A stretch of DNA of 64,000 bases from positions 2,890 to 66,889 of IMG/VR virus record IMGVR_UViG_3300048599_000416; one strand, given 5' to 3'. Each line of letters begins with the position of its first letter. The stretch's first letter is position 1. The translations under genes were made by a program, and so were the position numbers. Shown here one piece after another: positions 1-22,806 of the stretch. The DNA is from a virus (taxonomy: Duplodnaviria; Caudoviricetes). Under the pieces are notes generated by a model. That model was not told the DNA's origin. It saw only the letters and a list, made by a program, of their open reading frames with translations, and searched no databases.

Positions 1-684
1 AAGATTCCGATAGAGGTATTTCATGTAGCTTGCCCAACCATGATCTTTAAATTTTGAATTGCATACATGGCTTAGCAGACTTTTGATTTGCTCGTCAGTA
101 AAATAATTTGGTAATTCTCTTAACATACTATTCCGTTCATCACTATTGTATGGTAAACCGTCCATTAGCGTATCGAATTCATCAATAAGTTGAGTGACCG
201 TTTTGTTATCATCCTTTGTTATGACAGGCACGCTTTGACTTGTTGAATCTTCTTCGGGTTCGTTGCAAGGCTCAATTGGCTTCTCCTCTGGTTTTGAAAT
301 CTCTTCTATGTTTTGCTCAGGCAAAGAAATTATCTGCTTGTCTTTAGTTCTTAGTTTGAAAATCTCATCATTACTCATCTGGTCATATTTCATGATTTGG
401 TCAAAGTTGATCGAGTAGCGATTCCTTTTTCTTGTTGCTTGCCCTGATTCTTTGTGTATTAGGTTTAGTATTACAAGCTGGTTGATAGCTTTCTGGGCTG
501 TTTTGTCTGTAACGGACAGATTTTTGCAAATGTAGCTGATCGACATCTCAAAAGCCTCATCTTTATTCATTTGCTGGTAGTCTATCATTGTGCCCAAGAG
601 GGCACGCTCAGTTCCTGCCAGTAGTAAGCTTGATTTCTTTGGTAGCTTTATGAATGCGTAATTTTTTTCATTGGTTGATTCCAT
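1..684 (-). CDS. Partial hypothetical protein with a winged-HTH-like N-terminus (runs off the window edge)
   Basis: Manual translation from ATG at 684 gives 228 open codons to base 1 (MESTNEKNYAFIKLPKK...ISYICKNLSVTDKTAQKAINQLVILNLI). It is absent from the ORF track, presumably because no stop codon lies in the window. Confidence 0.6.
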   Translation of the reverse strand, partial: MESTNEKNYAFIKLPKKSSLLLAGTERALLGTMIDYQQMNKDEAFEMSISYICKNLSVTDKTAQKAINQLVILNLIHKESGQATRKRNRYSINFDQIMKYDQMSNDEIFKLRTKDKQIISLPEQNIEEISKPEEKPIEPCNEPEEDSTSQSVPVITKDDNKTVTQLIDEFDTLMDGLPYNSDERNSMLRELPNYFTDEQIKSLLSHVCNSKFKDHGWASYMKYLYRNL

Positions 685-1201
685 TTTGCGGTTATATTAT
701 CCTATTATTTAAGTGGTTATTAATATGATGACTGCACTGGAGCCTAACCACAAAACTCCAGCGCAACTTCAATTATATACATATATTTACAAATATGTAT
801 TCTAAAAGTTATATTGTATTTACAATTACTACAAATGTACTAATATAAATTAATAAAAACAATAATTGTTGAAATTAAAAGTGTGCTGTTTGAGGGATTT
901 GTGTTACTATAGTAAATATTCGTTATTTGGTAATATTCATTGAAATAATTACTTATGGTGTTAAGTAGATATTCCTTTAGTACTGCAGTATAAAATACTA
1001 ACAAATAATAATTATATAATAAATAATATATTAATAAAACATATATAGTAATGACTATATAATTGTTATTTGATAATGTGGTTTTATGTTTATATTACGG
1101 ACGCTTTGTAAGCGTCTGCATAAAGTAATGATTTGGATAACAGGTGAGGGGAGTACGGTGATTGTTCAATGAGAGGGTGACTTAGATTTGCCTCTGCCAT
1201 T

Positions 1202-4054
1202 CTAATTTTTACCAACCCCATTAATGAAAGTATCAACAAAGCCTTTGATTTTCTCCAGAATACGACTTCCTGTCCGTCTTCTCTCAAGCAAAGTGGGTTT
1301 TTCTCCGTTTCTCAACTCAAGTAATTCATCTAAGAGCGGCTCCCGTTCTGAGAAAAGGTAATCTGCTATAACTTTCTCAACTCTTTCAACTGCGAGGTTC
1401 TCTTCCTGACAGATTTTCTTGAAGGCTTCCAATTGCTCCTTGTTCCAGAACTTCTCAAACTCATCTGGGATGTCGTCGGTATCTTCAATGGCTGGTAGGT
1501 TTTCCTGAATGAACTTCTCAATCAGTTCCCGTTTGCTTCTCAGGTGAACTTCTCCAGCGATTATGTCAATGATTTCTTTGCGTCTCCGCTCCTTGTCTTT
1601 CTCATTGCTTTCGTGGAGTTTGGCGAGTAGTCTAAGAATGTATGCTACGTTTATTTCATCCCTACGGATAAGTTCCAACTCAAAATCAACTTCGTCAAGT
1701 ATGGATACCTTTTCTTTCTGTGTATTAGGCTTAACCTTTTCGTATAGGTCAAGGTATTTGCTCTTGTAGTCGTTGAAGAGCTGTTCATTCATGGCCAGAC
1801 TATCAAAGTCGAAGTCGGCAAATGTACTGAGGATGTTTTTGATCCTCATCAATTCCCTGAAAGCCTTAATGTACGCCAGCTCCTCCTCTTCGTCCTTCAA
1901 TTCCGAAACGCTTTCAACGGTCGGGGTGATTTTTAGTAGTTCAATAAAAGCCTGTGTGAATTTCTTGACATACTCTTCGTAGGGTTGCATGATGATTATG
2001 TCCTTGGCTTCCTTATTGCTAAATAAGGCAATAGCATCATCGGTGGCCTGTTTCAGGTTGCGGAACACAACAATGTTTCCCTGGCTTTTTTGCTCGTTTA
2101 GGATGCGATTGGTACGGGAGTAGGCTTGGATTAGTCCGTGATACTTCAGGTTCTTATCAACGTAAAGCGTATTGAGGGTCTTGCTGTCAAAGCCTGTAAG
2201 GAACATATTTACGACCAGCAAAATATCAATCTGGCGTTCCTTTACCTTCTTACTGATGTCGTTGTAGTAGTTGTAGAACGATTCACTGTCTTTTGTCGAA
2301 AAGTTCGTTCCGTACATCCCATTATAATCACCGATGAATTCATCCAGTTTTTCCCGACTATGAACATTCAGTCCATACAAAGCACGAGGTTCTTCCACTA
2401 CCGAGAGCTCCTCTGGTAAGAATCCCGTAGCGTCTTTGTCGTCTTCATTCGAGGCATAACTAAAAATGGTCGCCACACGCAAATTGTGGCTTCCTGAGGC
2501 TTTCTTTTGCTTGAATAGCTCGTAGTACTTGATGAGTGTTTCGACGCTGGATACGCAAAACATAGAGGTATATTCGCCACTGTACGTTTTACGATGGTGG
2601 TTGGTGATGATGAAGTCAACAATCTTATTCAACCGCTTAGGCGACTCCATTAGCTCTTTGGTGTCAATATCCTCTACTTCTATGTCGATGTCGGTTGCAC
2701 TGTCTTTTTTCTTATACCTTCCGACATACTCTACGGCGAATTTTAGAACATTTTCGTCACGGATAGCATCGGTTATTACATACTTGTGCAGACACTCACC
2801 AAAGAGCTCTTTGGTGGTGCGTTTTCCTAATTCGTTTTTAACAGCATTCTCGGCAAAGATAGGTGTTCCCGTAAAGCCGAACATCTGAATATTCTGGAAG
2901 TAGGCTTTGATTCTGGAATGGGTTTCGCCAAACTGGCTGCGGTGGCATTCGTCGAAGATGAAGACAATTCTTTCCTCTTTCAGCTTGTTCATCTTGGCTT
3001 GATGATACTTTTTGCTGATGGCGGTATTTAGCTTCTGAATCGTTGTAACGATCAGTTTCGTGTCATCCGAAAACTGTTTGACGAGGGAGTTAGTATTATC
3101 CGTCCCGTCAATGCTTCCCTTGCTGAAGCTGTTGAATTCTTTGGTAGTTTGATAATCGAGATCCTTTCGATCAACCACAAATACTACCTTCTTCACCTGA
3201 GGCATGTTCGTTAAGATCTGAGCAGCCTTGAATGAGGTGAGGGTTTTACCGCTGCCTGTGGTGTGCCAGACATATCCGTTTTTGGTTGTGTTTCGTACCC
3301 GTTCTACCAATGCTTCTACAGCATAATATTGATACGGACGAAGTACCATAGGTATTTTGTTGGCTTCATTCAAGACGATATACTTACAAATCATCTTGCT
3401 TACATGGCAAGTATCCAGAAAGGTGAAGGCGAATTTTTCCAGTTGAGTGATGGGCTTATTCTGTTCGTCTGTCCAATAGAAAGTCTGTTTGAAGCTCTGG
3501 TTTTTATTGTTGGCGTAGTATTTGGTATTGACTCCGTTACTGATGATAAAAATTTGAATATATTGGAATAACCCAATTGAAGACCCGTATGAGTGACGTT
3601 GATAGCGGTTGATCTGGTTGAATGCTTCTTTCAGCTCGATGCCCCGCCTCTTTAATTCGATTTGTACCAAAGGCAAGCCGTTGATGAGTATAGTGACATC
3701 GTAACGGTTTTTGTAGGTGCCTTCCATTGCTACCTGATGTGTTACCTGAAAGCGGTTTTGGCACCAGTTGTCGATGCTGATGAATTCAAAATAGAGACTC
3801 TCTCCATTGTCTCGAACAATATGCTGCTTTTCCCGTAGCGTCTTAGCTTTATCGAAAACAGATCCCTTACTAAGAATATTCAATATGCGGTCAAATTCCT
3901 TTTCCGAGAGTTGGATGTTGTTGTGTCTCTCTAATTGACTTTTGAGGTTTGTCAAAAGTTCTTGTTCGTTGGAGACGGACACCAAACCATAGCCTAAAAG
4001 TTGCAATTGGGCTATGAGTGAATTTTCGAGAATTTGTTCGGGTTGACTGGTCAT
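1202..4054 (-). CDS. hsdR: Type I restriction enzyme R subunit (EcoR124I-like)
   Basis: Nuclease motif YDV...VQIELK, Walker A GSGKT, DECH box, QAYSRTNR helicase motif; adjacent to hsdS and hsdM. Confidence 0.97.
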   Translation of the reverse strand: MTSQPEQILENSLIAQLQLLGYGLVSVSNEQELLTNLKSQLERHNNIQLSEKEFDRILNILSKGSVFDKAKTLREKQHIVRDNGESLYFEFISIDNWCQNRFQVTHQVAMEGTYKNRYDVTILINGLPLVQIELKRRGIELKEAFNQINRYQRHSYGSSIGLFQYIQIFIISNGVNTKYYANNKNQSFKQTFYWTDEQNKPITQLEKFAFTFLDTCHVSKMICKYIVLNEANKIPMVLRPYQYYAVEALVERVRNTTKNGYVWHTTGSGKTLTSFKAAQILTNMPQVKKVVFVVDRKDLDYQTTKEFNSFSKGSIDGTDNTNSLVKQFSDDTKLIVTTIQKLNTAISKKYHQAKMNKLKEERIVFIFDECHRSQFGETHSRIKAYFQNIQMFGFTGTPIFAENAVKNELGKRTTKELFGECLHKYVITDAIRDENVLKFAVEYVGRYKKKDSATDIDIEVEDIDTKELMESPKRLNKIVDFIITNHHRKTYSGEYTSMFCVSSVETLIKYYELFKQKKASGSHNLRVATIFSYASNEDDKDATGFLPEELSVVEEPRALYGLNVHSREKLDEFIGDYNGMYGTNFSTKDSESFYNYYNDISKKVKERQIDILLVVNMFLTGFDSKTLNTLYVDKNLKYHGLIQAYSRTNRILNEQKSQGNIVVFRNLKQATDDAIALFSNKEAKDIIIMQPYEEYVKKFTQAFIELLKITPTVESVSELKDEEEELAYIKAFRELMRIKNILSTFADFDFDSLAMNEQLFNDYKSKYLDLYEKVKPNTQKEKVSILDEVDFELELIRRDEINVAYILRLLAKLHESNEKDKERRRKEIIDIIAGEVHLRSKRELIEKFIQENLPAIEDTDDIPDEFEKFWNKEQLEAFKKICQEENLAVERVEKVIADYLFSEREPLLDELLELRNGEKPTLLERRRTGSRILEKIKGFVDTFINGVGKN

Positions 4055-4117
4055 CTCTATATTGAATATTAGTTTGTTTTAGTAAAAATGACTCGCCGGT
4101 TTCACCGGCGTTTTTTC

Positions 4118-5332
4118 TCACACAAACATTTGTTGTAATAATCCCTTTTTCCATCGTTCCATGCTTTCTTTCTGCTGTCCGCAATGGCTGATTTTTTCAT
4201 CAATGGCTGATAGAAAATTGGCGATTTTGATTTGTTCGGGAAGAGAAGGATAAGGTAACTGAGTTTCGCTGAAATATTTATAACTAATCATTTTTCCATC
4301 CCTTATTCCTTCCAGTTTGAGGTTCAGCTGCTTTATGTAACTTGTTGTCTTGAGGAAGTACTTATAAAATCGTCTATCAATTTTAGCTTTTGGTCTAAGA
4401 ATAATATATGCTGGGCTACATATTCCTTTGTATTCTGAATATTCAATGCCACCTTGAAAAGAACGAAGGCTGATGATAAAATCACCAATTTGAACAACTT
4501 TATAACTTTCGACACTTTTATCTGTTACTGTGATATTATAGTCGATTAAATCTCTTGGAATTGCACCTTTATCCTGAGTAATTGCAAGTATTGGTAAATC
4601 TGAATTGTGATTTTTATCCGAAATATTTTCAAACAATTCATTTCCATTCTTTTCTTTCCACTCTGGAAAATCCTCTCCATTCTCATCTTTAAACCGAAGT
4701 TGCTGGCTGAAGATTTGCTGCATCACCCCTTTTTTGTGTTGTTCTAGCAGTTCCTTTTTCTTTTTCAATTGGTTGATCCTGTCATCTACAGCTGTCAGGA
4801 AATTGGCGATTTTGGTTTGTTCGGGAAGGGAGGGATATTGAATTTTAAGTTGATTTAAGTCACGACTATAAATAGCAGCAACACTTGTAGTTCCAGTTGC
4901 AAAACTTCTAAGTTGAAGTATTGTTTTTTTTGTATTGAAGAAATAATTCATATAACGGTTGGTGTTGTCTATACGATTATTAAACTTCAATCTTAAAAGA
5001 TTTGAGTTATATAAAGCAAAAGGCAACTCATTTCTCCAAATGGCAACTTTTCCGACCAAATCTAAAGTGTTACGGGTATTAAAGAGCAAATCTCCTTCTA
5101 ACAATACATCTTCAGGATTATATGTTTGGTCATCTGGCAATGATTGAATTTTATCAAGGACAATATTACCTCTACCGATATTCCCCATTTTTATAACAGG
5201 TATTCCTTTATTAGATTCAGAATTATCATAATTTCCACCCAATCTGCCTTCAACTAAAAGCATACTAAGCTTATCACATCTCCATTCCCCCTCAAACTCA
5301 GGAAACCGCAATTTTGGTACGTTATTTTCCAT
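4118..5332 (-). CDS. hsdS: Type I R-M specificity subunit
   Basis: N-terminal VPKLRFPEF, two TRDs, repeated conserved PSLPEQxKIANFL segments, C-terminal KKGLLQQMF. Confidence 0.97.
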   Translation of the reverse strand: MENNVPKLRFPEFEGEWRCDKLSMLLVEGRLGGNYDNSESNKGIPVIKMGNIGRGNIVLDKIQSLPDDQTYNPEDVLLEGDLLFNTRNTLDLVGKVAIWRNELPFALYNSNLLRLKFNNRIDNTNRYMNYFFNTKKTILQLRSFATGTTSVAAIYSRDLNQLKIQYPSLPEQTKIANFLTAVDDRINQLKKKKELLEQHKKGVMQQIFSQQLRFKDENGEDFPEWKEKNGNELFENISDKNHNSDLPILAITQDKGAIPRDLIDYNITVTDKSVESYKVVQIGDFIISLRSFQGGIEYSEYKGICSPAYIILRPKAKIDRRFYKYFLKTTSYIKQLNLKLEGIRDGKMISYKYFSETQLPYPSLPEQIKIANFLSAIDEKISHCGQQKESMERWKKGLLQQMFV

Positions 5333-5335
5333 AAT

Positions 5336-6904
5336 TTAAAACGGGGTTTTAATATCGAGCTCGGCACAAAATCCTGCAATCAGTTTATCGGTTTCGGTCA
5401 TGGATTTTTCCAGCTCCGTCAGTTCGTTTGCCACAGCGTCAATATCAATCTGGTCTTCTGCTTCAAATGTGTCCACATAACGGGGTATATTCAGGTTGTA
5501 GTCGTTTTCGGCTATTTCCTTTAATGTTGCTCGTTTGCTGAATTTCTCTGTTTCGGTACGTTCGCGGTAGGCAGTCACAATACGGTCAATGTCTTCTTCC
5601 CGCAATACGTTTTGGGTTTTTACCTTTTCGTAATACTGACTGGCATCTATAAAGAGAATATCTGCGGGGTTTTCACGGCATTTCTTGAATACTAATATAC
5701 AGGTAGGTATGCTTGTCCCGTAAAAGATATTGGCAGGTAGTCCAATCACTGCATCCAGATAGTTTCGGTCTTCAATAAGGTACTGGCGTATCTGAAGTTC
5801 TGCCCCACCTCTGAACAGTGCCCCGTGGGGCAATACTACAGCCATAGTTCCGTTGTCGGCCAGTTGGTAAATCATGTGTTGCACAAAGGCAAAGTCGGCT
5901 TTGCTGCTTGGTGCCAGTTTTCCGTACTGGCTAAAACGGTCATCGGTAGTAAATAGTGGATTTGCACTCCAGTTGGCAGAAAATGGAGGATTTGCCACCA
6001 CTGCTTCAAATCGGTGTTCGAGGTGTTGTGGATGTTCCAGAGTATCTTCCTGTCGGAGGTCAAATTGTCGGTAATGTACCCCGTGCAGTATCATATTCAT
6101 TCGGGCAAGGTTGTAGGTGGTACGGTTCATTTCTTGCCCGTAAAAATCACTCACCTCTGTTTCCTTCGCTAATCGTAATAATAAGGAAGCAGAGCCACAG
6201 GTAGGGTCATAAGCCGACTTGAGTTTGGTTTTGCCCGTTGTTACGATCTTGGCCAGAATCTTGCTCACTTGTTGAGGCGTGTAAAATTCGCCCGCTTTCT
6301 TGCCCGCACCGCTGGCGAACATCCCGATCAGGTATTCGTAGGCATCGCCCAATACGTCCGAATCCGTTTCGTGAAGCTTGAAGTCAATCTGGTCGAGGTG
6401 GTACAGTACTTTGGCTATCAACTCATTCTTGGCTGATTCAGTTCGCCCCAGTTTAGTACTGGTCAGGTCGAGGTCTTCAAACAGGTTGTCAAAATCATCC
6501 TCACTGGCTGTCCCCATTGTACTTTGCTCAATGTTTGTCAGAATCTTATGCAGGTCTTCCAGAATAAAGTTATCTTCGCCTTCTTTGTCGCTGTTCCCCC
6601 GCTTTGCTATTTCGCTGAATAGTTCTGATGGTTTCAGGAAGTAACCGAGTTTTTCCAAGGCTTCTTCTTTGATGACTTCCAGATATTCCCTGCCTGCTTC
6701 ACTGGATTCATCAATGTCAAGGTATTTAATTTTGTCTTGAGTTAAGATGAAATCTGCATAGGAGTGCATCTTTTCTGATAGGTATTTGTAAAAAATGAAT
6801 CCCAGTATATAGTCCCGAAATTCATCCGCATTCATCTTTCCCCGTAATGTATTTGCAATGTTCCAAAGTTGCTGTTCGAGTTGTCTTTTTTGATCTTCTG
6901 ACAT
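5336..6904 (-). CDS. hsdM: Type I R-M N6-adenine methyltransferase subunit
   Basis: GEFYTP, YDPTCGS motif I, ANPPF motif IV, YNLNIPRYV C-terminus. Confidence 0.97.
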   Translation of the reverse strand: MSEDQKRQLEQQLWNIANTLRGKMNADEFRDYILGFIFYKYLSEKMHSYADFILTQDKIKYLDIDESSEAGREYLEVIKEEALEKLGYFLKPSELFSEIAKRGNSDKEGEDNFILEDLHKILTNIEQSTMGTASEDDFDNLFEDLDLTSTKLGRTESAKNELIAKVLYHLDQIDFKLHETDSDVLGDAYEYLIGMFASGAGKKAGEFYTPQQVSKILAKIVTTGKTKLKSAYDPTCGSASLLLRLAKETEVSDFYGQEMNRTTYNLARMNMILHGVHYRQFDLRQEDTLEHPQHLEHRFEAVVANPPFSANWSANPLFTTDDRFSQYGKLAPSSKADFAFVQHMIYQLADNGTMAVVLPHGALFRGGAELQIRQYLIEDRNYLDAVIGLPANIFYGTSIPTCILVFKKCRENPADILFIDASQYYEKVKTQNVLREEDIDRIVTAYRERTETEKFSKRATLKEIAENDYNLNIPRYVDTFEAEDQIDIDAVANELTELEKSMTETDKLIAGFCAELDIKTPF

Positions 6905-14300: not shown

Positions 14301-15074
14301 ATGCCAATAAGCGAAGTATTCTGCTGCGACTGCAACGACTACATGCAACAATTGCCGGATAAGAAAATTAGTCTGGCAATTGTTGATCCTCCTTATGGCA
14401 ATGGGATTTCTAAAAAAAGCAGATACGGAAATAAAGTTACCATTTCCAAGCATTCTAAAAATGGAAAATATGTAAGTGTAATAAACAAAACAGAATTTAT
14501 TTCCAAAAATTGGGATTTGAAAACTCCAGATAAGGAATATTTCAATGAATTACTAAGGGTAAGTAAAGAACAAATTATATGGGGAGTAAATTATTACAAT
14601 TACAAATTTGATTCGGGTAGAATTGTTTGGGATAAAGTAAACGGACAAACATCATTTTCGGACTGTGAAATTGCTTATTGCAGTTACCATACATCTGTTA
14701 GATTATTTGCATATATGTGGAATGGTATGATGCAGGGAGAGAGCAGGGAAAACGGTAGAAAGCAGCAAGGTAATAAACAACTGAATGAAGAGAGGATTCA
14801 TCCAACCCAAAAACCTGTTGAGTTGTACAAATGGCTTCTTGAAAAATACGCCAAACCGGGAGATGTAATATTTGATAGTCACATGGGGAGCCAGAGCAGC
14901 CGAATTGCGGCCTACGAAATGGGATTTGATTATTACGGTTGTGAGCTGGATCCGGATTATTTCAGAGAGGGATGCGAGCGGTTTGAGGCATACCGGCAAA
15001 AGAAAGAAGAGATAGCACAGTTTGGATTTGCAAAAAGCGAACTGGGAAAGACTAACCCGATATTATTTGAATAA
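14301..15074 (+). CDS. Orphan amino (N6-A/N4-C) DNA methyltransferase, beta class
   Basis: DPPY, then HPTQKP and FDSHMGS in beta order. Confidence 0.9.
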   Translation: MPISEVFCCDCNDYMQQLPDKKISLAIVDPPYGNGISKKSRYGNKVTISKHSKNGKYVSVINKTEFISKNWDLKTPDKEYFNELLRVSKEQIIWGVNYYNYKFDSGRIVWDKVNGQTSFSDCEIAYCSYHTSVRLFAYMWNGMMQGESRENGRKQQGNKQLNEERIHPTQKPVELYKWLLEKYAKPGDVIFDSHMGSQSSRIAAYEMGFDYYGCELDPDYFREGCERFEAYRQKKEEIAQFGFAKSELGKTNPILFE

Positions 15075-18175: not shown

Positions 18176-18474
18176 AACGGGTGAAGGGTGTTTTGTTTAG
18201 CAACGGTAGTGAGCTAATGAGTTGGACCGGAAGAAACTGTGAACAGTGTTGGAAGCATAGCCGGTTTGTTGCGAAAACGGATAGTTATACCCGCTTTCGT
18301 TGTTCAATCGATTTGCAGATTCAGCAACAGGTAGCCGGACTGGATGGATCGGACATGGTATATCCGAAAACAGTTGAGGCGGTATCGATGGCCGATTGTC
18401 CGCAACGCGAAAAGACTCAGAAAAAATACAGCAGGGGTTTGAAGGGAATGAAAAATTTATTTGAAAATGAGTAA
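18172..18474 (+). CDS. Cys-containing hypothetical protein (CxxC)
   Basis: ATGA overlap; CEQC plus additional Cys residues. Confidence 0.55.
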   Translation: MKRVKGVLFSNGSELMSWTGRNCEQCWKHSRFVAKTDSYTRFRCSIDLQIQQQVAGLDGSDMVYPKTVEAVSMADCPQREKTQKKYSRGLKGMKNLFENE

Positions 18475-18892
18475 AGATAGTAAGCAAACAGAACCGGATT
18501 ATTGCGGTCGGATCCTCATAAAATTGAAACGGCAATACGGCAAGGATGAGGTAGTGGCTGCTTTGATGAAGGAAGTAAAAGAGAAGGATGTGGAAATTGG
18601 TCAGCTGAAAGCTGAGGTAGATCATCTAAGCTATGAGAAATCTAAGCTTTATCAAAAAGAAGTAGAACAATTTAAGTTGAATAATGCAATTTCTTTAGGA
18701 AAAGAATTGGCTGGAAAGGCGAGTGGTGTTCCTCCCGAAATAATACGAGAAGCGCGCATTTCGGTAAGAAAAGAGGAGCTATATAAAAATCTGAGGACTG
18801 AAAACGCCAGCCTGAAAGAGCGGATAAAGAAACTCAGAAATGAATTGGGAGAGGTAATTGCCAGGAATAGGCAGTTGATGTTGGAGAAATAA
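18467..18892 (+). CDS. Coiled-coil hypothetical protein
   Basis: Charged heptad-rich ORF; its TAA stop forms part of the TAAC of the attC-like site. Confidence 0.6.
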   Translation: MSKDSKQTEPDYCGRILIKLKRQYGKDEVVAALMKEVKEKDVEIGQLKAEVDHLSYEKSKLYQKEVEQFKLNNAISLGKELAGKASGVPPEIIREARISVRKEELYKNLRTENASLKERIKKLRNELGEVIARNRQLMLEK

Positions 18893-19018
18893 CGGATTGG
18901 CGGTATGATTAGCCGCCCATAGAAATAACAAAACTTTCAAAATACAATAACAATGCAGAACGCAAACACTTCAACCACAGAGCAAAACGGGCGGTTAAAT
19001 ATACCGATTGTTAGCTCC
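18883..19018. other. attC-like long imperfect inverted repeat
   Basis: TAAC(18890)...CGGTAT..TTAGCCGCCC pairs with GGGCGGTTAA..ATACCG...GTTA(19013), with bulged bases and a 70-nt loop. Confidence 0.6.
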
Positions 19019-19636
19019 CAGCCTTTTCGTATTCTCAATTTACAAGCTGGATTGGGTGGTAATAGAGTAAAATGGAGCGGAAATATACACATAACCGCTG
19101 TTGAAATTGATCCAAAGATTGCTGCCATTTATAAAGCCAATTTTCCAAATGATACTGTAATTATTGGAGATGCAATGGATTACTTAAAAAAACACAGGAA
19201 TGAATTTGATTTTATATGGAGTTCTCCCCCTTGCCAAAAACATAGCAAGATGATGAAAGCGACAAGACATGATGTAGCTGATTTTATTGATTTACAGCTT
19301 TATCAAACCATTATATTTTTGAAGCACTTTTATAAAGGGAAATGGATTGTTGAAAATGTAAAACCTTATTATGAACCGCTTATTAAGCCAACAAAAGTTT
19401 TTGGACGACATTTGGTTTGGAGCAACTTAGATTTAACAGACTTTAAAACTGAAAATGTACCAAACTTTATCAAAGGAGATTCACCAACCGAAATAGAAGC
19501 TCTTAAAAAATGGTTAGGGATAAAATACGACGGAAATATCTACTACGGTAAGAATCATTCACCTGGTCAAGTATTGCGAAATTGCGTTAACCCTGATTTA
19601 GGGCTGCACATTTTAAATGCGGTTCTATCTCTTTAA
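18953..19636 (+). CDS. Short C5-cytosine DNA methyltransferase
   Basis: ILNLQAGLGG motif I, WSSPPCQ motif IV, IVENV motif VI. Confidence 0.85.
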   Translation: MQNANTSTTEQNGRLNIPIVSSQPFRILNLQAGLGGNRVKWSGNIHITAVEIDPKIAAIYKANFPNDTVIIGDAMDYLKKHRNEFDFIWSSPPCQKHSKMMKATRHDVADFIDLQLYQTIIFLKHFYKGKWIVENVKPYYEPLIKPTKVFGRHLVWSNLDLTDFKTENVPNFIKGDSPTEIEALKKWLGIKYDGNIYYGKNHSPGQVLRNCVNPDLGLHILNAVLSL

Positions 19637-19701
19637 GGTTGGAGCTAACTATTATCTATCAAAACCATTTATAAAATAATTAATAACCAATACTTTAAGG
19701 C

Positions 19702-20535
19702 ATGAATATCGGAAACTACACCAATCAACTTTCCAGGAGTTTGGAGTACAGAATGTATTCGGAGAATACGGTGAGAGCGTATGTGGAACAGATTCAAAAG
19801 TTTCTGAAATATTTTGAACCGGTGGCCTCAAAGCCTTCCGAAATTTCGGCAAAGCAGATAAAAGAATACCTGTCAAGCCTTGGAAGTTATTCATATCATA
19901 AAGCAGCGTTGTGTGCTATCAAATACTTTTACAAGGAGGTGGGAAAGCAACCGCGTAAACTGGATGACGTGAAGTTTCCACGTAAGCAGCAGAGATTGCC
20001 TCAAGTATTGAGCCAACAGGAGATACAGCGGATGTTTAATGCCTGTACCAATACAAAGCACAAAGTCATACTGTCGCTATTGTATGCCACAGGCTTACGG
20101 GTGTCGGAATTGATAAACCTGAAATGGGAGAATATTGACCGACAAAGAATGGTTATCAATATTATTACAGGAAAGGGTAATAAGGATCGCCAGGTGATGT
20201 TGCCGGAAATGTTGATTCCATTATTCACAAAATACTGGATGGAATACCGGTCGAAAGAATACGTGTTGAACGGGCAGTTTGAACCACAGTATTCGCAAAC
20301 AAGCGTGTTGCAGGTGGTAAAGCAATTAGCGGCAAAGGCCGGGATAAATAAACGGGTATACACACATTTAATGCGGCACTGTTCGTTTACACACATGGTG
20401 GAAAACGGTACGGACATCAACCTTATACAGCGCATTGCAGGGCACAAATCGGCAAAAACTACTGCTATTTATACCCATATTTCGCACAATATCATCAGTA
20501 AAATACAATCGCCTATTGCGATGATTCAATTATAA
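19702..20535 (+). CDS. Tyrosine recombinase (Xer/integron-integrase-like, SAM-like N-domain, no IntI insertion apparent)
   Basis: YATGLRVSE, GKGNKDR, HLMRH, AGHKSAKTTAIY catalytic residues; 277 aa. Confidence 0.92.
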   Translation: MNIGNYTNQLSRSLEYRMYSENTVRAYVEQIQKFLKYFEPVASKPSEISAKQIKEYLSSLGSYSYHKAALCAIKYFYKEVGKQPRKLDDVKFPRKQQRLPQVLSQQEIQRMFNACTNTKHKVILSLLYATGLRVSELINLKWENIDRQRMVINIITGKGNKDRQVMLPEMLIPLFTKYWMEYRSKEYVLNGQFEPQYSQTSVLQVVKQLAAKAGINKRVYTHLMRHCSFTHMVENGTDINLIQRIAGHKSAKTTAIYTHISHNIISKIQSPIAMIQL

Positions 20536-20593
20536 CAACAAAATAAATAGCAGAGATAAGAAATAGTTTTTTATCTTTGCAAACCAGGCTATC

Positions 20594-21917: not shown

Positions 21918-22806
21918 TAAATCATAAATGATTGTATGTTAGATTTATAGGCTATTTTGTGGTTGTGGTTGGAATGTTATTTGAATCTAAAGTAGAAAGA
22001 AATAGAAACAAAGAAAAAATGGGACGTTTTAAGCGAGTTTAAGCAATTGAATGTGGAAAGTATCGGTTGAGGTAGGTTGATTTAAACTGAAGCTTATTTC
22101 TGATAAAATAGAATAATATTAGAAGGTGTGATGTAAAGCAAAAAAAAGCACCGGTTAAGGTGCTTCTGTAATCACGTTTTTTGCACGTGTCGAAATATTT
22201 TGATTTTGTAGACATGAAAAATTATACGTTGCTGCTATACTTACCATTTTCCTGATGTCGGGAATATGATAAAGAAATGTGATTTTATTTACACGTTTGT
22301 GCGATATGAAAAAGAAACGCGATTTTCTTTGCATGAAAAAAGCACCGGTTAGAGTGCTTCTGTTATTTTTTGATTACGCTTCCATTTATCGAGCGCAAGA
22401 GCAATTGCCAATTTAATTGTGGGAGATCCTTCGTAAATCCATTTCCCGACATCATCTGTAATTTTAAGAGCCTTCAATGAATTTGCAATGTGATAATCGA
22501 CCTTGTAATCCTCGTATAGTTTCTTTATCACTATAGTTCCGGCCTCATGCCGATATTTATACGAAATTAAAAACTTCAACAGTTTATCAATATATTCCTG
22601 TCGGGGGAAGAGATACTATAAATCATTCAGAGAGTATTTGATTTCGTCTGCGAATGGTTCGTCTATTTTGGATATAGAACCTAATTTACCTGTGTTTTGT
22701 GCCATTGTGTAAAATATTAAAATTGTATTGCAAAGATACTGCATTTACAAAGCAAATCACAACTATTTGTTTCTGTTGTTCAGCATATTTTTGAAATAAC
22801 CAATAC

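Follow-up and report, generated by a model that had tools for sequence, protein, structure and literature searches.

Can a gene begin inside the recombination site that moves it, and if so, does that site belong to the gene or to its neighbour? The question is raised by a short gene for a C5 DNA methyltransferase in a stretch of viral DNA of 64,000 nt (the window). An earlier note had read this gene as a cassette without a start codon of its own, borrowing the ATG from the attC-like hairpin of the cassette upstream. The features of the locus are as follows, a slash marking a crossover point or junction wherever one is written in the text.

18890..18893, + strand: TAAC, left core of the site (block boundaries fall at TAAC in relatives)
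18894..18900, + strand: 5' unpaired spacer GGATTGG, its first G opposite the T before GTTA (G:T)
18901..18918, + strand: left arm of the hairpin (inverted repeat and folding)
18919..18988, + strand: A-rich loop of 70 nt, with an AT-rich stretch before the start (AAAATACAATAACA), the ATG at 18953 and codons 1-12
18953..19636, + strand: short C5 DNA methyltransferase, 227 aa, with residues 1-24 as a putatively site-encoded leader
18989..19006, + strand: right arm of the hairpin, codons G13-P18
19007..19016, + strand: 3' spacer ATT and GTTAGCT (R'-like core), translated I-V-S
19643..19649, + strand: AGCTAAC (R''-like), exact reverse complement of GTTAGCT; the cassette would end at A 19648
19649..19660, + strand: C-TATTATCTATC, attI-like site, conserved before the recombinase gene in about 20 relatives
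19702..20535, + strand: Xer/IntI-related tyrosine recombinase, 277 aa, candidate cognate enzyme

The first three letters of the left core (18890-18892) are the stop codon of an upstream phage gene at 18461-18892. The arms of the inverted repeat (18901-18918 and 18989-19006) form 15 Watson-Crick pairs and 2 G:T pairs with 1 mismatch over 18 positions, enclosing the 70-nt loop. The description in the earlier note holds in full at this level. The ATG at 18953, nucleotide 35 of the loop, is the sole ATG, GTG or TTG before motif I in a stop-bounded frame open from 18929, and the methylase frame runs from it through the right arm as G-R-L-N-I-P, over ATT GTT AGC as I-V-S, and then into SQPFRILNLQAGLGG and motif I.

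The protein has the motifs of its class, namely motif I (FxGxGG), motif IV (PCQ) and motif VI (ENV), and G33, G35, G36, PPCQ at 92-95 and ENV at 134-136 are invariant in 40 homologues. It matches PF00145 with 46.5 bits against a gathering threshold of 22, and the match begins at residue 25. In the predicted structure, the first strand is formed by residues 25-30 and pLDDT is below 50 for residues 1-19; the leader is thus predicted to be disordered and to lie outside the fold. The window encodes a second DNA methyltransferase at 14301-15074, and the left end of the record (window 1-6904, minus strand) carries a complete Type I restriction-modification set of HsdR, HsdS and HsdM.

A hairpin element shared by many loci

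The hairpin is real and more than a chance inverted repeat, and the decisive evidence for this is comparative, drawn from the sequences of related loci (cited below by L numbers where they need to be told apart). Homologues of the methylase occur in two forms, one starting with MKILNL and lacking the repeat, the other with an N-terminal extension of 13-46 aa and a repeat at the same place. Homologues lacking the hairpin also lack the leader, as the reading in the earlier note requires. Where the extension is 20-45 aa long, 13 of 31 loci have a strong repeat, and where it is no longer than 8 aa, 1 of 77 does. At about 20 homologous methylase loci, the arrangement TAAC(G)-spacer-stem-loop-stem-spacer-(T)GTTA occupies an equal place, with arms that differ from locus to locus and covary.

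Over all fetched loci, 98 distinct elements were found; the coding strand accounts for 133 and the opposite strand for 6. Among 83 non-redundant elements, the arms form on average 12.8 Watson-Crick and 1.8 G:T pairs per 16 positions, compared with 4.5 when arms are taken from different elements, and every stem position shows all four Watson-Crick pair types across the elements. These covariation counts were made by script; RNAalifold on a MAFFT alignment of 24 elements, in which the arms are out of register, predicts no pairs. Stems are of 16-22 bp and loops of 4-90 nt; the unpaired spacers measure about 5 nt on the 5' side and about 2 nt on the 3' side. Positions 13-14 of the stem are rich in non-Watson-Crick pairs, in an ungapped analysis that is blind to bulges. 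The elements therefore show the features by which attC sites are recognized: an imperfect single-strand hairpin of 57-141 nt, an unpaired spacer, a variable centre and covariation.

The asymmetry of the element indicates which strand folds. Of 87 elements, 82 have the longer spacer on the 5' side, and 70 have TAAC-G and T-GTTA as their ends. When detection is made strand-symmetric, G:T oppositions outnumber A:C by 121 to 52 (p 1.6e-7), and the coding (+) strand is therefore the folding strand. Folding of the relatives as single-stranded DNA gives the long stem as the minimum free energy (MFE) structure in 14 of 14 elements tested. The copy in the window behaves differently with the two sets of parameters. 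As RNA, its long stem is the MFE structure (-28.6 kcal/mol, z -3.9, with none of 200 shuffles as good), whereas as DNA it is not (z -1.3), and the fold of 18880-19050 lacks it. The window copy, weak as single-stranded DNA, may be degenerating; alternatively, more weight may lie with the RNA form.

Within the window the element stands alone. A scan of all 64 kb found one real hairpin element, upstream of the methylase, and none downstream of it; the one extra match, an AT-rich hairpin at 999-1068, scores at a level also reached by shuffled sequence. No family of related sites emerged from a repeat search over 10-24 kb of the window, and neither Rfam (E up to 1, at the hairpin) nor blastn of the region against GenBank phages produced a match. 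An unrelated observation from the same region is a 31-nt direct repeat, 90% identical (22142-22172 and 22336-22366), which lies in mostly non-coding DNA and holds a GCACC-ggtta-GGTGC hairpin after an A-run.

Complementary ends, arrays and a probable recombinase platform

The identification of the hairpin as an attC-like site with an AAC...GTT core, made in the earlier note, gains support from covariation, from the ends of the cassettes and from their arrays. In 78 of 92 elements, GTTAnnn is followed downstream by its exact reverse complement, nnnTAAC, and the 7-mers differ between cassettes. The window has GTTAGCT (19010-19016) and AGCTAAC (19643-19649); pairs found at other loci are

GTTAACG and CGTTAAC
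GTTATAT and ATATAAC
GTTATGG and CCATAAC
GTTAGCG and CGCTAAC
GTTACCT and AGGTAAC

AAC and GTT are invariant in the elements, and the flanking positions deviate from the strict purine/pyrimidine pattern (RYYYAAC and GTTRRRY). Judged by sequence, complementary end 7-mers of this kind are the core and inverse-core hallmark of integron cassettes.

The far end of the window cassette, AGCTAA/C, abuts a site that is conserved in relatives of the recombinase. Each recombinase homologue has the sequence nnnTAAC-TAYTATATGTA at a distance of 55-60 nt upstream of its start, at 19646-19660 in the window and likewise in twenty relatives on viral contigs (L177-L204), and the sequences upstream of the recombinase genes diverge exactly 5' of TAAC. 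TAAC-TAYTATATGTA thus looks like the attI-like insertion site of a recombinase platform. Upstream of it, the relatives carry same-strand arrays of 2-8 hairpin elements, in which the 7-mers chain cassette to cassette and finally to the attI-like site (TGCTAAC-attI-recombinase), so that an array ends as (hairpin-body)n-TAAC-attI. Cassette length has a median of 559 nt. In 69 of 73 cassettes, the hairpin lies 5' of the open reading frame (ORF) and on its coding strand. This is not the layout of classical attC sites, where the site is 3' of an ORF carried on the non-folding strand. Arrays of this size also set the relatives apart from the window, which, with its one element, falls short of the minimum of two attC sites in a few kilobases by which a CALIN is defined.

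The recombinase is related to the integron integrases without being one of them by the usual measures. Its profile scores lie below the cutoffs (178 bits against 265 for TIGR02249, in two stretches, and 204.6 against 220 for NF040815), the match to IntI4 (2a3v) is split, and the IntI-specific insert is lacking. A recombinase 56% identical to it was found in a Bacteroidota genome bin. Most hairpin-bearing methylase loci have no recombinase homologue within 2-4 kb; the window and L012 are the only ones that do. Several recombinase genes themselves end in TAAC. An inverted repeat brackets the gene in the window (19647-19660 and 20556-20569, 11 of 14 positions matching), and no conserved counterpart is present downstream of the gene in 20 relatives, which do not bear out a reading that would place the recombinase gene within the site.

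Might the hairpin act in the mRNA only, as a structured 5' leader by which the start site is exposed or controlled, or as a signal for processing or insulation, with no role in DNA recombination? The folding of the window copy under RNA parameters alone is what such an element would show, a G:T bias suits a sense strand, and the start region does lie in the loop. Nothing in this proposal, however, would explain why opposite ends of a cassette carry complementary 7-mers, why shuffled cassettes break at TAAC (see below) or why arrays end at a conserved TAAC site beside a recombinase gene. Rfam has no matching RNA family, and sites of phage PH101 with the same TAACG...TGTTA ends recombined with IntI1 (PMC9892861). 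We regard a purely RNA-level role as improbable.

Start codons in the loops

The position of the methylase ATG is part of a wider pattern. Loop lengths are bimodal, one class being shorter than 40 nt and the other peaking sharply at 70-80 nt, and the two differ in where their ORFs begin:

62 long-loop cassettes: main ORF starts in the loop in 26 (and 2 further short ORFs do so), in the right arm or spacer in about 5, after GTTA in 25-28
30 short-loop cassettes: main ORF starts in the loop in 0, after GTTA in 25

When the frame of a long-loop element is open past GTT, the loop contains an in-frame ATG in 26 of 37 cases; the figure for the two control frames is 9 of 74 (p 1e-9). The in-frame loop ATGs sit 42-63 nt before GTT. 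Cassettes of this kind encode unrelated proteins of 58-464 aa with similar leaders, as the earlier note had suggested might be found: a start rich in N, Q, K and E is followed by ..TQSCxTxV.. GTTA is translated in all three frames in the loop-start cassettes (17:3:6). The three frames together with the likeness of the leaders place the constraint at the nucleotide level, and they support the view that the first 20 or so codons of the methylase are set by the site and not by the enzyme. Past GTTAnnn, at a distance of 3-10 nt, many cassettes also have a G-Y-N-G-TTTTT run; in the window, 19019-19030 reads CCTTTTCG and codes for P-F-R just before motif I. A short coupling ORF in those long loops that lack the main ATG was considered and dropped, as a loop ATG was present in only 14 of 25 and no common pattern emerged.

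A cultured phage provides further examples. Flavobacterium phage vB_FspS_stinky9-1 (L208, MN812238, 1340-4060) carries three consecutive methylase cassettes, gp007, gp006 and gp005, and the GenBank ATG of each is in the loop of its own hairpin. gp005 is followed by an attI-like remnant, TGGTAAC-TACAATATTACATG, that has no recombinase in its vicinity. The loop starts in 26 of the 62 long-loop cassettes would fit a site that doubles as a portable translation-start module.

The alternative is that the loop ATG goes unused and that the leader is untranslated, translation starting instead at a near-cognate codon after GTTA such as the ATT at 19031, a codon aligned to the initial Met in homologues starting MLNL. 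In favour of this are the predicted disorder of the leader and the many homologues that require nothing before (K)ILNL. The context of ATT 19031 is, however, neither A-rich nor unpaired, whereas that of ATG 18953 is A-rich and free of structure, as at the other loop starts; the frame is open from the loop ATG far oftener than control frames are, and there is no canonical start downstream. A near-cognate start seems to us about as doubtful as a role confined to the mRNA.

Boundaries of the mobile unit

Whose hairpin it is can be judged from blocks that have moved, of which there are two independent comparisons. In the first, the arrays L189 and L190 have three cassettes in common, 99-100% identical and in different order, and every block runs from the TAACG of one hairpin to the next TAACG; one of these cassettes is mid-array in L189 and adjoins the attI-like site in L190. 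In the second, L001 and L209 share one block of 760 nt at 86% identity, consisting exactly of TAAC, hairpin, loop ATG, methylase and TAAC, with unrelated flanks on both sides. Window 18890-19649 is likewise 760 nt. Since common blocks run from TAAC to TAAC, the hairpin is the cassette's own site and lies 5' of its ORF. This makes C-hairpin-GTTAnnn-ORF-nnnTAA the mobile unit and places the crossover at TAA/C, which in the window would fall between 18892 and 18893 on the + strand; the ATG travels with the ORF.

Several claims of the earlier note give way at this point. It had assigned the site to the cassette upstream and placed the crossover at G/TT, between leader and enzyme; the blocks in both comparisons begin at the TAAC of the hairpin instead, and the window has no hairpin downstream. 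It had held the cassettes to be start-less; the unit common to L001 and L209 includes both hairpin and ATG, and the start codon is not borrowed, because it lies in the cassette's own site. The proposed on/off switch by position and frame is left without a basis, as hairpin and ORF move together.

The expectation that similarity between homologous methylases would begin only after GTT was borne out in part. The similarity of L096 and L209 to the window begins close to that point, about 10 nt before GTT, and that of L001 to L209 covers the whole hairpin. When the window or L096 is compared with L209, the bodies are 85-89% identical, and of the hairpin only the base of the stem (GGTAT and ATACC), TAACG and TGTTA are recognizable as shared; no alignment could be made of the distal stem, the loop or the leader. 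By these alignments, the central part of the hairpin either evolves very fast under a constraint on structure only or is exchanged, and some exchange near the GTTA side is possible. L209 (JGI Ga0613702_005211) is the closest methylase cassette, with 91% aa identity; this cassette lies beside an efflux-pump gene (ACR_tran, OEP) and has another hairpin after it, and its context looks bacterial rather than phage.

A G/TT boundary that splits a site-encoded leader from a methylase expressed only when a leader-bearing site precedes it in the correct frame would suit the lack of a start codon between GTT and motif I, the onset of similarity in L096 and L209, the leaders on unrelated proteins and the precedents of ORF-11 in attI1 and of aacA4 with upstream starts (PMC8876359), but it is the least probable of the readings considered and can be set aside in view of where the common blocks begin, of the single hairpin upstream of the methylase with none downstream, of arrays that end (hairpin-body)n-TAAC-attI, of a right-hand 7-mer that is kept by each hairpin while the left trinucleotide varies with the neighbour, and of a hairpin type that tracks the methylase clade (the GGTAT type is found in the window, L001, L209, L096, L134, L013, L005 and L100).

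The upstream gene itself (143 aa), which has no relatives among viral contigs, was considered as a further cassette and rejected, because the left 7-mer of the site, AAATAAC, has no partner GTTATTT upstream in 12-19 kb.

A model of the cassette

We consider it likely, chiefly on comparative grounds, that window 18893-19648 is one integron-type cassette whose ORF starts in its own 5' hairpin and which was inserted at TAA/C before the gene for an Xer/IntI-like recombinase. The cassette would be located in a prophage operon, with the insertion directly upstream of the recombinase gene. If the minus strand is taken as the 'top' strand, the geometry would become that of a classical integron, with the attI-like site by the recombinase, then the cassette body, then its own attC-like hairpin. 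With the ORF on the folding or 'bottom-like' strand, the hairpin would come first in the orientation of the gene, and the translation-start region, the ATG at 18953 and the first 20 or so codons would be embedded in the loop and right arm of that hairpin. We infer that translation starts at ATG 18953 and that the folded + strand is the substrate of the recombinase. Excision would then leave an empty site with the junction GAGAAATAA/CTATTATC, 756 bp shorter, and a circle with the junction ...GGAGCTAA/CGGATTGG... The methylase would most likely be made with a disordered, site-encoded N-terminal leader and be transcribed by read-through from the phage operon. As the ORF moves together with its hairpin, its expression would be independent of the cassette upstream.

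A more general proposal is put forward tentatively, as one that falls a little short of an even balance in our judgement. It is that these elements form a phage-borne family of integron analogues with a short Xer-like recombinase, in which each folded site may also be a portable expression module, comprising an AT-rich stretch for ribosome loading, an ATG and a short disordered leader, so that a captured ORF would be expressed wherever its cassette lands. One structure would then act both as single-stranded DNA in recombination and as the 5' end of an mRNA in translation.

Relationship to known systems

In classical integrons, the site lies behind the gene and the promoter is outside the cassette; for some cassettes the translation signals are outside as well, which makes their expression dependent on position. 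The likeness to the present elements is extensive. Cassettes of about 300-1100 nt with an imperfect hairpin of 50-130 nt and an invariant AAC...GTT are common to both, as are complementary end 7-mers, an unpaired spacer, a variable central loop and one strand that folds better. Both also form arrays by a tyrosine recombinase gene with a proximal attI-like site. The differences are that here the ORFs are on the folding strand with the site 5' of the ORF and often containing its start codon, that the ORFs read towards attI and the recombinase rather than away from a Pc promoter, and that the core is nnnTAAC and GTTAnnn in a phage host. The recombinase, with its 277 aa, falls below the integron-integrase cutoff and is without the IntI insert.

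PeSL cassettes of T4-type phages are small ORFs flanked by repeated promoter/stem-loop modules that mediate shuffling, which probably proceeds by homologous recombination between the repeats. They resemble the present cassettes in that small phage ORFs are shuffled by way of repeated stem-loop expression modules. They are not known to have an AAC/GTT core, end 7-mers that are complementary or a recombinase of their own.

The nearest published observations are those of Qi et al. 2023 (PMC9892861), who described clusters of phage attC sites without an integrase (CALINs), several of them by DNA methyltransferase genes, including one in Polaribacter phage P12002L. In that work, P12002L_attC1 gave no IntI1 recombinants and the attCs of PH101 did recombine; sites were divergent in P12002L and cassettes pointed the same way in TJE1 and PH101, and the orientation of ORFs was not related to that of the site (PMC9892861). 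P12002L_attC1 is of exactly the same class as the present elements, and the PH101 attCs have the same TAACG...TGTTA ends. On the minus strand of P12002L (L176, NC_028924), the same elements were found at 38936-38035 and 30077-29974 around gp54, gp53, gp36 and gp35, all in gene orientation and with P12002L_attC1 among them; the phage has no close match to the window methylase, though its sites are of the same class. The difference is that a cognate platform with an Xer-like recombinase is not mentioned by Qi et al., nor does the phrase 'start codon' occur in the paper, so that ORFs starting inside a site are not discussed there.

The use of recombination-site DNA for starting translation has precedents. 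Cassettes without a translation start of their own use outside signals, as with ORF-11 and ORF-18 in attI1 and in fusions to aacA4 (PMC8876359). As here, the start signals lie in the DNA of a recombination site and the frames cross the crossover point. In those cases, however, the start is outside the cassette and dependent on position, whereas here it is in the cassette's own site and moves along with it. Neither the recombinase platform nor an ORF that starts in its own attC came up in our literature search. Phage attC sites beside methylases have thus been known since 2023; what is new is a variant of the integron cassette architecture, with the site before the gene on the coding strand.

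The reversed arrangement, with the site ahead of the gene and often bearing its start codon, means that each cassette supplies its own start. If this is true, the annotation rule for these phage genes changes: their N-termini would be encoded by the site, and starts inside hairpins would be genuine. Simple Xer-like recombinases of this kind would provide a natural system in which to study how a folded-DNA site and a coding sequence can overlap, and as the same elements are present in cultured Flavobacterium and Polaribacter phages, the idea is open to test. It would also account for the exchange of anti-restriction methylases and small accessory genes by phages as self-sufficient units.
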